Shown here in pieces: positions 22,077 through 29,000 of a stretch of 64,000 nt of DNA (positions are counted from its first letter, which is position 1; every line of letters starts with the position of its first letter). The stretch comes from Promethearchaeota archaeon (GTDB lineage: Archaea; Asgardarchaeota; Lokiarchaeia; Sigyniarchaeales; SOKP01). A program made the translations under genes and the position numbers. Below the pieces are notes generated by a model. It was given only the letters and a program-made list of their open reading frames with translations. It did no database searches and had not been told where the DNA came from. The DNA is taken from the NCBI GenBank assembly GCA_016839555.1, contig JAEOUA010000009.1, positions 1-64,000 on the forward strand, in the 5' to 3' direction.

Positions 22077-23255
22077 ATGATTGATGATTTTTTAAACAAA
22101 TTTAATATGATTCCCTTATCAGATCTAGAAAAGGGTGTAGTCTTAAATTTTGAAATTGAAAAAGGCGATCGAACTCATAAAATAACTCCCATATTACAAC
22201 AGGCAAAAATTAAACACGCAACAGCTATATGTAATATTTTTAAAAATGCTTATCATGGATTATATCCTTTTAAAAGAATGGAAGACCCTATTGAAATAAA
22301 ACAGATGATTAAAAATCCTCAATATCTCTGGTTAATATTCAAAACCAATGAAAAAGAGGTTATTGGATGCTTGGGTGCACATTTAGACAAAGAATATAAA
22401 AAAGGATATCTTTTTGGCTTCGCTATTAAACCAGCATACCAAGGAAAATTTGATAGTTTAAAAGCTTTTATTGGGAGTTTAATAATCATTTGGAAAACCT
22501 ATGAATCTCAAATATTAATTTGGTCGAGTGAAGTTCGAACATATGATACAGCACCTCAATATGGAAACATTAAAGTTGGTTTAGAACCTATAGCATTTTT
22601 ACCAAATAAAGATATTTTTACTAATCACAGAGAATCTGAATTTTTTACGATTACCTATAATAAAGAAGTCTTCAAAAGGAGATGTAAAAAGAAAGTAAGA
22701 ATAATAAAAGAAGTAATTAATTGCTATCTTTTTTCTAAAAAAAGATACGATTTAAAGGAACACTCTATTGAAGATCCTATAATAAATCTCAATAAGGAAA
22801 AATGTTCAAATTTAGGAAAAGAACTTATTTCAAGAGAAGAAACTGACAAGTATGGAAACAAAGCTATTAATTATTACTTTAAAAAAAGTCAATCTAAATT
22901 TTCGTTTATTTACAATTCTATTAGTAGAAACATTGAGAAAATTAAATATAAAATTGAAAACTTGGAAGAATTAATTGTTTTTATACGAAATTTAAAAAAC
23001 TTTATGGAAAAATATGAAATAGTTTATGCAGAATGTTATGTTTCTGCTTATAAACCAAGGCATCAAAAAATATTCTATAATGCTAATTTCAAGCCTACAG
23101 GATATATTCCTGGCTTCCATTATAATAAAAATACACATGAATTTCAGGATATTATTTTATTTGCTCTTTATAAAGGAATAATTGATCCTGACCTCAAATA
23201 TAGTTTAATACCTGAAACTAAAGAACTTTATAAAACCGTTACAATGGGGATATGA
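22077..23255 (+). CDS. Double-domain GNAT-fold N-acyltransferase
   Basis: Y.G.YPF, FAIKPAYQGK motif-A-like segment and two repeated (G/F)xP(I/T)(A/G)(F/Y)(L/I)P domain ends. Confidence 0.7.
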   Translation: MIDDFLNKFNMIPLSDLEKGVVLNFEIEKGDRTHKITPILQQAKIKHATAICNIFKNAYHGLYPFKRMEDPIEIKQMIKNPQYLWLIFKTNEKEVIGCLGAHLDKEYKKGYLFGFAIKPAYQGKFDSLKAFIGSLIIIWKTYESQILIWSSEVRTYDTAPQYGNIKVGLEPIAFLPNKDIFTNHRESEFFTITYNKEVFKRRCKKKVRIIKEVINCYLFSKKRYDLKEHSIEDPIINLNKEKCSNLGKELISREETDKYGNKAINYYFKKSQSKFSFIYNSISRNIEKIKYKIENLEELIVFIRNLKNFMEKYEIVYAECYVSAYKPRHQKIFYNANFKPTGYIPGFHYNKNTHEFQDIILFALYKGIIDPDLKYSLIPETKELYKTVTMGI

Positions 23256-23311
23256 ATCTTAATCTATAAAAATAAGAGTACTCAATTATATTAAAAAAAA
23301 TTTAAAAGAAT

Positions 23312-26518: not shown

Positions 26519-26543
26519 AAAAAATCAAATATTTCTTATTTTT

Positions 26544-29000
26544 TTACCATAAAATTGGTAAAGAAAAGGAAAAGATACTGCCTTTATTTCTGCCCTCTGA
26601 CACAGCCCAAATTCGTCCTTTATGAAGATTAATAATTTTTTTTGATATATATAAACCTAATCCAGTTCCTTCAATATCTAAATCCAATCCCTTTCCATAT
26701 CTTTCTATTTTGCCAAATTTCTTAAAAATTCGTTTTTTTTCAGCTTTCGTAAGTCCAATACCTGAATCTTTCACAGAGATAATATATTCTTCTTTATTTT
26801 TTTGAGAATAAATAATAATATTTCCATTTGTAGGAGTAAATTTTATAGCATTGATTAAAAGATTAGAAACTACTTCATGTATTTTTTCTTTATCATATCT
26901 AGTAATCAAATTATCATGTAAATCTAATGTAATAGATTGATTTCTAAAATTCGCTATACTTTCTAATTCAATTACACAACTTTTAATTAAGGGTACTAAA
27001 TTATCTTGTTTTATTTTTAATTTAATTAGATTTTGATCCAATTGTGCGCTTATAAGTAAGTTTTTTATTATTTTTTCAAGTCTTTTAACCCCTTTATTTA
27101 TTTCTTCAGCTATAGAAATCATTTCTAAACTCATTTGATCTTTATGAACTTCTAATAGTAGATTTGTAAAACCTTTAATAGAAATAAGAGGTGTCTTCAA
27201 TTCATGTGATGTATGAGTTAATAAATTTGATTTAAATTTATTCATCTCTTCTAATATTTTATTTTGATCTTCAAGTTTCTGTTTTACTTCCCATCTTTTT
27301 TGTTCTATTTCAATAGCAGTAGATATCAAAAATAAGACTAATTGATGATCATGAGTGATTAATGGATTTTTATCAAAAAAACCACAAATACATTCATTAT
27401 AATTATTTTGTGATTTTATTAATTTTCCATAAGCACTTTTTATATTATATTTTTTTATAAATGGGTCTTTTTTTGCATATTCTAACTTATCAATATCAAG
27501 AAAAGTTTGAGGAAAATCATGATGTTCATAAAAAAATTTAGATACAAAAGTATTTTTCATAAAATTTTCTATAGATTCATATGTAAATGTCTTTTTTTCG
27601 TTTGTAATTATTTTAAAAGTATTATTACTCTCATTTTTATAAACAAAAATCGCTAAATTACAATCCAATAATTTGACACATGTATTTAGTAATGATTGAA
27701 TGTTGGTTTGATTATCTATTGTAAAATTCAAAAAATTAATATTTAATTCTGTAATTAATTTTTGGTACCTTTTCTTTTCGGTTATATCTATTAATGTAAT
27801 TAAATATGCAGATTCACCTTTATAATTAATAATTTTTGAATAATTATCAAGCCAAATTACTTCATTATCTTTTCTTATACCTTTGAATTGAAAATGATCT
27901 ATTGCATTTTGCTCTCCCCTCTGTTTTGCACTAGTTTTCCATTTTATATTTTTTCGATCTTCAGGATGTATTAATTTTAAAAATTCATTGGTGTCCCATT
28001 TTTTAATAGACTCTGATTTATAACCAAATAATTTTGCAAATTGTTGATTGGTGTATTTAATTAATCCATTTTGAATGATAGCTATACCCATAATAGATTG
28101 CTCAGTTATATATTTAAATTTTTTTTCAGATTCTTTTAATTCAGTTAAATCATGATAAGTCACTAAAATCCCTACTATTTTTTTCGTAGAATCATATAAT
28201 GGAATTCTATTTACATCAAAAAAGAATTCTTTATTGTTCTTATGCCATTTTATTATTTTTTGAAATTCAGAATAACCAGATTTAAGTACTTGAATCTCTT
28301 CTTCTTTAAGGATTTCCAATTTTTTTTTATTTTTGATTAAGTTTTCATCTTTTTGACCTATAACATCTTCTGGAAAATTAAATCCCAATAATTGAGCATA
28401 TTTCTTATTACAACCTAAATAAACTAGATCTTTATCTTTCCAAAAAATATATTGCGGAATATTTTCTACAACGGTTTGTAATATTCTATAAGATCTATTT
28501 AATGATTTTTCAAGATTTTCTGGATTAAATAATTTCCAGAAACGGATTTCTGGAATTTTTTTAGAAATTCTTTTAATAGCTTTCTTATTCTCTTTTATTT
28601 TTCTTTCTAAATTTTTTTGCTCTGAAATAGATTTTAATACAACAAGTAATTTTTTTTGTTTTTTATTATTATAAAAGAGTTTAGCTTTAATTTCAAACCA
28701 ATGAGGTTTTTCAGATTTATTAAAGACTATAATTTCATTTTCAACGTTATTACTAGAAGAACCCAACTTTAAAATTTTAACAGTTTTCTGGATATATTCT
28801 TGATCGATAATTTTTAAAAATGATTCTCCGATTAAATCTGTTCCTTTATAATTTAAATATTTATTATAAGCTTTATTATTTATGAACTCAAATTTAAAAT
28901 CATATTCAGGGTTTAAAATAGCTATTAATTCATCAATCTCAGTTAATATTAATTGAGAAATATAATTCATATCATAAGTTTTTATGAATTGTGAATCCAT
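26544..29000 (-). CDS. Cytoplasmic PAS-PAS-PAS-(GAF-like) sensor histidine kinase
   Basis: IFWKD..YLGCN and IHPEDR PAS motifs; H-box SHELKTPL, NLLINAIKFT, DSGIG and GTGLGL. Confidence 0.93.
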   Translation of the reverse strand: MDSQFIKTYDMNYISQLILTEIDELIAILNPEYDFKFEFINNKAYNKYLNYKGTDLIGESFLKIIDQEYIQKTVKILKLGSSSNNVENEIIVFNKSEKPHWFEIKAKLFYNNKKQKKLLVVLKSISEQKNLERKIKENKKAIKRISKKIPEIRFWKLFNPENLEKSLNRSYRILQTVVENIPQYIFWKDKDLVYLGCNKKYAQLLGFNFPEDVIGQKDENLIKNKKKLEILKEEEIQVLKSGYSEFQKIIKWHKNNKEFFFDVNRIPLYDSTKKIVGILVTYHDLTELKESEKKFKYITEQSIMGIAIIQNGLIKYTNQQFAKLFGYKSESIKKWDTNEFLKLIHPEDRKNIKWKTSAKQRGEQNAIDHFQFKGIRKDNEVIWLDNYSKIINYKGESAYLITLIDITEKKRYQKLITELNINFLNFTIDNQTNIQSLLNTCVKLLDCNLAIFVYKNESNNTFKIITNEKKTFTYESIENFMKNTFVSKFFYEHHDFPQTFLDIDKLEYAKKDPFIKKYNIKSAYGKLIKSQNNYNECICGFFDKNPLITHDHQLVLFLISTAIEIEQKRWEVKQKLEDQNKILEEMNKFKSNLLTHTSHELKTPLISIKGFTNLLLEVHKDQMSLEMISIAEEINKGVKRLEKIIKNLLISAQLDQNLIKLKIKQDNLVPLIKSCVIELESIANFRNQSITLDLHDNLITRYDKEKIHEVVSNLLINAIKFTPTNGNIIIYSQKNKEEYIISVKDSGIGLTKAEKKRIFKKFGKIERYGKGLDLDIEGTGLGLYISKKIINLHKGRIWAVSEGRNKGSIFSFSLPILW

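Follow-up and report, generated by a model that had tools for sequence, protein, structure and literature searches.

INTRODUCTION

Several described biosynthetic systems join an N-acyltransferase to an adenylating enzyme of the ThiF family. OxzA/OxzB of Pseudoalteromonas rubra, TyzA/TyzB/TyzC, and TrzA/TrzS of Mycobacterium tuberculosis all pair an N-acyltransferase that uses acyl-coenzyme A (acyl-CoA) with a ThiF protein (PMC10404671, PMC12856293). TyzA and OxzA N-acylate an amino acid from acyl-CoA (PMC10404671), and the ThiF homologue TyzB, the cyclase partner of the acyltransferase TyzA, or the ThiF domain of OxzB adenylates and cyclizes the N-acyl amino acid (PMC10404671, PMC12596934). 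N-acyl amino-acid synthases have also been linked to PEP-CTERM loci (Craig 2011, as cited in PMC4897644). According to a 2025 review, one ThiF-like enzyme has been validated in non-ribosomal natural-product chemistry, and almost all ThiF-like enzymes validated in secondary metabolism act on peptides that ribosomes synthesize and that are modified after translation (RiPPs) (PMC12596934). Here we analyze a stretch of 64,000 nucleotides from a Promethearchaeota archaeon (assembly GCA_016839555.1, contig JAEOUA010000009.1, positions 1 to 64,000; hereafter the window), in which a first-pass annotation, made from the sequence alone, had proposed a module for the synthesis and sensing of an N-acyl metabolite at positions 22077–29000. 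The bacterial precedents on which it drew are indeed described, for TyzA/TyzB in PMC10404671 and for the PEP-CTERM-linked synthases by way of citation in PMC4897644.

The source genome (G000; 3.74 Mb in 12 contigs, 92% complete) is that of a Loki-type Asgard archaeon; the window lies on its contig C9, and the stretch is found in DNA runs of marine-sediment metagenomes only, and in no RNA run. From comparisons of related loci we find that two tandem-repeat GNAT proteins, a ThiF-family enzyme, a seven-transmembrane (7TM) protein and a histidine kinase are well supported as a functional unit. What this unit does can be put forward only tentatively: quite possibly, it is an operon-like module, specific to Lokiarchaeales, whose enzymes make a small molecule that is acylated and amide-linked, and which has a genetic connection to a split sensor kinase. 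The annotated arrangement, i.e. five co-oriented genes converging on a kinase, is confirmed by the list of open reading frames (ORFs) and by Pfam, with all six ORFs present. The features of the locus are as follows.

22077..23255, + strand: GNAT1, 392 aa, tandem-repeat GNAT; Pfam Acetyltransf_1
23312..24328, + strand: GNAT2, 338 aa, tandem-repeat GNAT; Pfam Acetyltransf_1 at residues 235–318
24391..25245, + strand: ThiF-family enzyme, 284 aa; Pfam ThiF, 113.8 bits
25246..25394, no strand: AT-rich spacer upstream of the 7TM gene, candidate promoter
25395..26114, + strand: 7TM protein, 239 aa, stand-alone, seven hydrophobic spans
26150..26518, + strand: orf122, 122 aa, accompanies the kinase end of the module
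26544..29000, - strand: histidine kinase, 818 aa; PAS, HisKA and HATPase_c (Pfam), convergent with the other five genes
21605..21850, - strand: orf81, small charged helical protein, conserved neighbor

RESULTS

Conservation and linkage of the gene set

We took 20 further regions from related genomes and compared all of their ORFs. GNAT1, GNAT2, ThiF and the 7TM gene stand together with an orthologous kinase in 12 related Lokiarchaeales loci, which come from five genera of one family. Three internal orders occur among the 12 (GNAT1-GNAT2-ThiF-7TM, GNAT1-ThiF-GNAT2-7TM and GNAT1-ThiF-7TM-GNAT2), and the kinase gene either converges on the last gene or lies upstream on the other side. The flanks are of two kinds: in one context Hdr-like genes precede the module, and PEBP (phosphatidylethanolamine-binding protein), AFOR and aminotransferase genes follow it; in genus g4 the flanks are wholly different. 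In each of the 12 related loci a kinase orthologue, 42–50% identical, adjoins the module, and the kinase accompanies it in 14 of 15 loci, the exception (L066) being a contig of 6 kb. The neighborhood conservation proposed as a check of the module was therefore found, with permuted order and with GNAT1::GNAT2 fusions in addition.

These fusions, of 748 aa, come from two other lineages (P0183 and P0212), and residues 415–748 of P0183 are 41% identical to the GNAT2 of the window. In L066 the order is ThiF-fusion-7TM. The second fusion locus, L064, carries an orf81-like gene and, further on, a fusion-7TM-radical SAM-kinase row, with a full-length kinase that is 48% identical to ours. Taken together, the two loci single out the GNAT pair and the 7TM protein as the tightest core of the set.

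ThiF orthologues of about 50% identity are present in many Promethearchaeota/Lokiarchaeia assemblies. Among the genomes searched with both ThiF and GNAT1 queries, 35 of 39 ThiF orthologue sites have a GNAT1 homologue at a distance of ≤5 kb, with the two genes co-directional, divergent or convergent; of the four exceptional sites, three have no GNAT1 match on the same contig, and they lie mostly near contig breaks. The GNAT1 family itself is small. A profile search of 1.84 billion cluster representatives gave 347 matches, and GNAT1 is present in 68 of 301 Asgard genomes, 59 of them from the window's own family; the module is thus confined for the most part to Lokiarchaeales.

Part of the GNAT1 family lies in other surroundings. 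Paralogous clusters, which we call type B, combine ThiF and GNAT1 with a remote GNAT2-like protein and other partners, without an adjacent 7TM protein or kinase; for their conserved neighbors (250, 284 and 1258 aa, and others) Pfam returned nothing usable. The source genome holds a second GNAT1 paralogue (40% identity) on contig C11 at 87581–88732 (L052), with a remote GNAT2-like gene about 2 kb off and no ThiF gene within 8 kb. In genus g2 a GNAT1 paralogue is fused C-terminally to a six-span DUF998 membrane domain (L050 7176–9191, - strand; L051 7070–9031, + strand; P0179); the L051 fusion adjoins the 250-, 284- and 1258-aa proteins typical of type-B ThiF clusters and has no adjacent ThiF. 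On a Helarchaeota contig the gene after GNAT1 is GNAT2, and a methyltransferase gene comes next. Two bacterial lineages have operons whose first gene is GNAT1-like and which also encode LuxE (acyl-protein synthetase) and LuxC/AMP-binding enzymes, so that a GNAT1-type protein beside an ATP-dependent carboxylate activator appears as a recurring theme. These bacterial operons (L060 6001–10922 and L061 6001–11017, from Ozemobacteraceae and one other metagenomic contig) look like an uncharacterized lipid or natural-product cluster, and that of L061 adjoins genes for a polyketide synthase, a phosphopantetheinyl transferase and an asparagine synthase.

The two tandem GNAT proteins

GNAT1 had been annotated as a double GNAT. 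Its AlphaFold2 (AF2) model (pLDDT 89, pTM 0.88) supports this, with two GNAT domains at about residues 37–203 and 250–365; it is not the only one, since GNAT2 is likewise tandem by its own AF2 model (pLDDT 89) and structural matches. For GNAT1 the structural matches (VIA) reach Z 12 with RimI/Ard1 and with the tandem GNAT 7q3a, and 2wpw was also matched; the N-terminal domain is nearest to N-alpha-acetyltransferases (Z ~12). Bacterial tandem GNATs of ~400 aa align with it at a TM score of 0.8 (ESM Atlas), and Foldseek returned generic single-domain GNATs only. The family alignment contains 32 invariant residues. Neither half has the canonical CoA pyrophosphate motif (Q/RxxGxG/A), the equivalent positions being occupied by QxxxD and AYxPxHQ.

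The structural matches of GNAT2 (VIA) are stronger: Z 23.1 with MAB_4324, 21.2 with the glucosamine N-acetyltransferase 5kf1 and 18.7 with MshD. Its C-terminal half has (Q/R)xxG in nine of 12 orthologues, and the window copy reads RGKRLA. On these motifs, GNAT2 is likely to be the CoA-dependent catalytic subunit, and GNAT1 may serve as its partner, by binding the acceptor or by a CoA-independent transfer. The profiles of the two proteins show no specific similarity (Prob 13.6%). A complex prediction for GNAT1, GNAT2 and the 7TM protein scored 0.00 and 0.00, which gives no verdict either way.

The first-pass annotation had also likened GNAT2 to YghO and ceramide synthases. A partial signal does exist: residues 71–179 of Escherichia coli YghO align with the N-terminal half of GNAT2 (hhalign 86%, E 4.9e-6, 102 columns, with a single-sequence template), and the alignment keeps the order of the FG...GP...G..EG motif. 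Confined to one domain, this likeness is insufficient for membership in the family, and we saw neither a serine palmitoyltransferase gene nor any other sphingolipid gene in the stretch.

The ThiF-family enzyme

In 21 orthologues of the ThiF protein the ATP/Mg residues are invariant (R20, N21, GxGGxG, D66, NLNRQ at 74–78, K88 and D122-D123). The window copy has four cysteines (37, 59, 65 and 80) and no CxxC zinc pair, as annotated. At column 175, in the crossover loop, 81% of the orthologues have Cys and the window copy has Phe. The best NCBIfam models, PRK08223 (99.9 bits, uncharacterized) and PRK08644, do not reach their cut-offs; the best matches in the Protein Data Bank (PDB) are 9egc/9egb (E 7e-14), then MccB and UBA5, with PaaA also among the matches.

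We placed the family by profile scores. The protein scores 42.4 bits with TcdA NF011696 (cut-off 304), 58.9 with MoeB (266), 51.5 with UbaA (450) and 72.7 with ThiF TIGR02356 (275). The genome has two other ThiF genes, one MoeB/UbaA-like (244 aa) and one E1-like (408 aa). The former, on contig C4, scores 241 bits with MoeB NF006444, 213 with NF004281 and 190 with UbaA, all below the cut-offs. By these scores, the module's enzyme is a third, divergent paralogue of this genome and not its MoeB/UbaA or E1 protein. Among the observations that the first-pass annotation had named as grounds for giving up the module were a lack of synteny in relatives and a ThiF protein that groups with TcdA or UbaA. 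Synteny is kept, as described above, and the TcdA and UbaA scores are far below the cut-offs; the genome has, moreover, the separate MoeB/UbaA-like and E1-like paralogues.

Three characterized roles were considered for the enzyme and rejected. An E1 for sulfur carriers of the MoeB/ThiF/UbaA type is contradicted by scores below the cut-offs, by the missing CxxC and by the lack of a GG-ending partner nearby, and a t6A dehydratase (TcdA) by the score given above. As to a microcin C-like MccB, the 284-aa protein starts at its Rossmann fold, MccB aligns over its residues 102–217 only, and the ThiF-7TM gaps that were read, in the window and in eight orthologous loci, contain no conserved small ORF.

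The 7TM protein and the histidine kinase

Hydrophobicity agrees with the annotated count of about seven membrane spans, and from its K/R-rich loops (1, 3 and 5) the protein is predicted to have its N-terminus outside and its C-terminus inside. Its most conserved residues (PGGI, NW.P.YSW and NTW) fall in loops predicted to face outward. No Pfam match was obtained for 12 members at E <= 5, and the protein stays below the threshold of PF16927 (HisKA_7TM). The ESM Atlas pointed to a 'histidine kinase N-terminal 7TM region'. To test this, we compared a profile of 40 members of the 7TM family with one of 28 Asgard HisKA_7TM domains. The hhalign probability was 95.5% when run locally (162 columns, E 1.5e-8) and 96.7% when run globally; the controls, i.e. 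reversed alignments and DUF998, gave 0.1–0.3% and 0.1%, respectively. A smaller earlier comparison (12 versus five sequences) had given 10% and is superseded by the larger alignments. In a search with a hidden Markov model (HMM) of the HisKA_7TM kinase domains, 7TM paralogues score between 1e-11 and 1e-6, the composition bias of these matches being high. By these profiles, the protein belongs to a family that is remotely related to the HisKA_7TM sensor domain and has no kinase part. A relationship to the DUF998 domain of the GNAT1 fusions was also considered and rejected (hhalign 0.1–0.2%). No longer, fused form of the 7TM protein turned up when such forms were looked for, which is weak evidence.

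The 7TM family occurs in 85 of 91 genomes of the order, with 1–11 copies each. The source genome has another, single copy on contig C9 (77699–78400, - strand; L082), which a CCG/Fer4 gene adjoins. Across the loci L078–L091 the 7TM pairs, or the single copy of L082, always adjoin a 115-aa helix-hairpin-helix and zinc-ribbon protein and usually a Na/Ca-exchanger gene.

For the kinase, Pfam assigns three PAS domains (residues 35–127, 174–287 and 294–400), nothing at 400–590, and then HisKA (39.5 bits) and HATPase_c (78.9 bits). The annotated PAS, HisKA and HATPase_c composition thus stands, and the GAF part does not, no GAF being detected by Pfam. There is no hydrophobic span, and by its sequence the kinase is soluble. 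A kinase-less 7TM protein beside a sensor-less kinase has the appearance expected of a split sensor kinase. The idea of a membrane receptor, also raised by the first-pass annotation, gains from both findings, i.e. from the remote homology of the 7TM protein to HisKA_7TM and from the adjacent kinase without a membrane segment; the relation to a ligand is one that we infer only. In a genome-wide search with PF16927 the sole match was a fused 7TM-PAS-HisKA-HATPase kinase on contig C6. Just upstream of that gene, at 144789–145124, lies a receiver-domain match with three in-frame stops (one TAG and two TAA), which may be a decayed response-regulator gene.

Spacing, composition and flanking genes

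The intergenic gaps measure 56, 62, 149, 35 and 25 bp in the order from GNAT1 to the kinase. The longest of them, the spacer at 25246–25394, is probably the 7TM gene's own promoter; a three-frame reading of the coding strand found no ORF common to this gap and eight orthologous ones. The stretch had been described as more AT-rich than its surroundings, and the GC content bears this out, with 23.0% for 22077–29000 and 30.5% for the remainder of the window. Orthologous modules are AT-richer than their own flanks in 10 of 11 loci, so the low GC is a trait of the gene families and does not point to a recent island or insertion.

None of GNAT1, GNAT2, the 7TM protein and orf122 has a family in NCBIfam, and neither orf81 nor orf122 has a significant Pfam match. 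Ten related loci, and L064 as well, have an orf81 homologue (44–63% identity) upstream of the module; homologues of orf122 (117–128 aa) adjoin the kinase in four loci (L036, L043, L044 and L045). Neither protein is beta-grasp-like or ends in GG, and given this C-terminus orf81 is not ubiquitin-like.

Directly upstream of the module, at 18852–21561 (+ strand), stand two tandem HdrD/GlcF-like genes (4Fe-4S dicluster and CCG domains; 425 and 459 aa), and Hdr-like genes occupy the same place in related loci. On the other side, a PEBP gene (PEBP/RKIP family, Pfam E 3e-42) lies at 30158–30598 (+ strand); such a gene stands divergently beside the kinase in six related loci, or seven counting this window. 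Here one extra gene separates the two, an alpha/beta hydrolase at 29208–30038 (+ strand), whose best NCBIfam model is 3-oxoadipate enol-lactonase (125.7 bits, below the cut-off). As it is not kept at this position in related loci, it is probably a lineage-specific insertion.

DISCUSSION

Proposed function

From these parts we infer the substrates, the order of steps, the product, the relations of receptor to ligand and of 7TM protein to kinase, and a role as a diffusible signal, as follows. GNAT2, whose C-terminal half has (Q/R)xxG of the CoA motif in most orthologues compared, would use acyl-CoA to acylate an amine, in the simplest case that of an amino acid. It would act in complex with GNAT1, which would bind the acceptor or perform a second, CoA-independent transfer. 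The ThiF protein, lacking both the zinc pairs and the crossover cysteine, would adenylate the carboxylate of the product with ATP, and the acyl-adenylate would be resolved without an enzyme thioester, either by intramolecular cyclization (as in TyzB, OxzB and TcdA) or by aminolysis to a second amide. At the membrane, the product would act on the HisKA_7TM-like protein, which would signal to the soluble triple-PAS kinase; alternatively, the PAS domains may bind the product directly. In its fullest form this scheme would be a self-contained chemical signaling system in a Loki-type Asgard archaeon, in which an N-acyl metabolite made by the double GNAT and ThiF proteins is perceived by a 7TM protein of G-protein-coupled-receptor (GPCR) topology with a separate PAS kinase, and in this form we consider it doubtful.

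Several observations weigh against the proposal. The enzymatic and signaling roles are predictions from sequence. PF13444 has no match in the whole genome (92% complete), and GNAT1 and GNAT2 match Acetyltransf_1 only and are not of the FeeM/LuxI type (PF00765 was not searched separately), so the likeness to FeeM/OxzA-type synthases that had been part of the original idea fails: both enzymes are tandem GNATs. Neither the window nor the conserved neighbors contain a nitroreductase or flavin oxidase; the nearest PF00881 match on the contig, at 119.6–120.0 kb, is ~95 kb away. The Oxz/Tyz oxazolone pathway was rejected on these two grounds, and an oxazolone product is not implied. On the sensing side, the window copy of the 7TM protein matches the HisKA_7TM HMM weakly (E 0.022), which makes its link to this domain a transitive one via paralogues, and most 7TM copies stand elsewhere, in tandem pairs beside the helix-hairpin-helix/zinc-ribbon protein and without a kinase. 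No response regulator adjoins the kinase, and contig C9 has no receiver domain (16 are found elsewhere in the genome), which makes the kinase an orphan. Adjacency of the kinase is owed in part to shared ancestry, as the related loci come from one family with broad synteny. Finally, L064 has no ThiF gene within 14 kb; ThiF is thus a usual and not an obligatory member.

Alternative explanations

A joint function other than signaling can be considered for the same genes. The product could be a metabolite or envelope lipid, e.g. a mycothiol-like compound or an acylated lipid head group, with the kinase as its regulator or a simple neighbor; the ThiF protein would then replace an ATP-dependent ligase and GNAT2 would be MshD-like, or the 7TM protein would handle the acylated lipid. 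The best structural matches of GNAT2 (MshD, glucosamine N-acetyltransferase and clavulanate-pathway tandem GNATs) agree with such a role, as do the fusion of GNAT1 paralogues to DUF998 and the type-B clusters without a directly adjacent 7TM protein or kinase, and the low GC and multi-copy families fit accessory metabolism. We nevertheless regard it as unlikely, given that the kinase is kept in both flanking contexts of the module as well as in the fusion locus L064, and that the relationship of the 7TM protein is with a kinase sensor domain, not with any known transporter or enzyme. That the genes are mere neighbors by shared ancestry, with no joint function, seems highly improbable. All full loci do come from one archaeal family, and ~17 kb of surrounding synteny is kept as well, but the permuted order, the two independent flanks, the divergent and convergent ThiF-GNAT1 pairs and, above all, the GNAT1::GNAT2 fusions contradict it.

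Two further explanations start from what ThiF-like and GNAT proteins do elsewhere, and both appear improbable. In RiPP-type tailoring the ThiF protein would adenylate a precursor peptide, the GNATs would acylate it and the 7TM protein would export it or confer immunity. The prevalence of RiPP substrates among validated ThiF-like enzymes of secondary metabolism (PMC12596934) favors this, and MccB and PaaA are among the PDB matches of the ThiF protein, as MccE-type GNATs are among the fold matches of GNAT1. No small ORF is common to all loci, however: orf81, an 85-aa ORF and orf122 are each missing somewhere, and the ThiF-7TM gaps read hold no conserved ORF; the ThiF protein lacks an N-terminal peptide-clamp domain, and there is no protease or ABC exporter. 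Protein modification, in turn, would have the GNATs acylate N-termini or lysines, possibly of the kinase or the 7TM protein, with ThiF as an E1-like activator of a protein C-terminus. Although the N-terminal domain of GNAT1 is nearest to RimI, Ard1/Naa10, RimJ and RimL, these fold matches are generic for GNATs; and although the ThiF protein has an E1 fold with UBA5 among its PDB matches, it has no zinc-binding CxxC, its crossover cysteine is not conserved in the window copy, no gene nearby encodes a ubiquitin-like or ThiS/MoaD-like protein ending in GG, and the genome already has MoeB/UbaA-like and E1-like paralogues.

Significance

A literature search for this combination found no signal-synthesis system in Asgard archaea. 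Our tentative proposal of an acylating module wired to a split sensor kinase involves several parts that are new: two previously unnamed tandem-GNAT families that would work as a pair, a ThiF subfamily without zinc and cysteine, a family of 7TM sensor-like proteins without a kinase part, large in Lokiarchaeales, and a conserved link of the GNATs, ThiF and 7TM protein to a soluble PAS kinase. Should the product serve as a signal, the module would offer a way to learn how these syntrophic archaea perceive partner organisms or their own density; should it be part of the cell, Asgard cells would contain a new metabolite or lipid with an amide link. Chemical signaling, if true, would mean that the lineage closest to eukaryotes has an archaeal circuit that resembles quorum sensing or serves to sense partners. 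All three enzymes are small and soluble, and they are suited to heterologous expression.

Comparison with known systems

The tandem GNATs of known structure (MshD 1ozp, 5kf1, MAB_4324 7q3a and the clavulanate-pathway protein 2wpw) share their two-domain fold with GNAT2 (Z 18.7–23.1 over 263–289 residues), and in MshD it is the C-terminal half that has the CoA motif, as may hold for GNAT2, in which most orthologues, though not the window copy, have (Q/R)xxG there. Identity is only 10–13%, and GNAT2 differs in having as its partner, in some cases within one fused chain, a second tandem GNAT that lacks the CoA motif. E. coli YghO, the one sequence compared, resembles a single domain of GNAT2. On the membrane side, HisKA_7TM (PF16927) has seven helices of similar length to those of our 7TM protein; it is, however, the N-terminal sensor of a kinase to which it is fused, whereas the protein described here is a stand-alone one of 239 aa from a family that is mostly not kinase-adjacent.

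The kinase PrsK carries a HisKA_7TM domain. At PEP-CTERM/PrsK loci an enzyme of the acyl-amino-acid type is genetically linked to a histidine kinase with such a 7TM-type sensor, a parallel to the sensing half of the module; here the 7TM protein and the kinase are separate genes, the acyltransferases are of another family, and there is no exosortase/PEP-CTERM system. For the synthetic half a close parallel is given by the Oxz, Tyz and Trz systems, in which ThiF adenylates the carboxylate of the product, and this is resolved without a protein thioester. TyzB is, like our enzyme, a stand-alone ThiF protein and of similar size (318 aa compared to 284 aa). Judged from the genes alone, the placement of ThiF beside an acyltransferase, which marks these systems, is found in our module too, and the adjacency is conserved. 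The Oxz/Tyz synthase, in contrast, is a single-domain protein of the FeeM/LuxI-like type, whereas the module has two tandem-repeat GNATs; the flavin oxidase of the nitroreductase superfamily that marks those pathways, fused to ThiF or beside it, has no counterpart in the module; and Oxz/Tyz are nonarchaeal and have no attached 7TM protein or kinase, whereas the module is archaeal and has both. We conclude that this archaeal module would share the logic of Oxz/Tyz, i.e. acylation and activation by ThiF, here with a 7TM protein and kinase attached, and that it realizes this logic with different parts.

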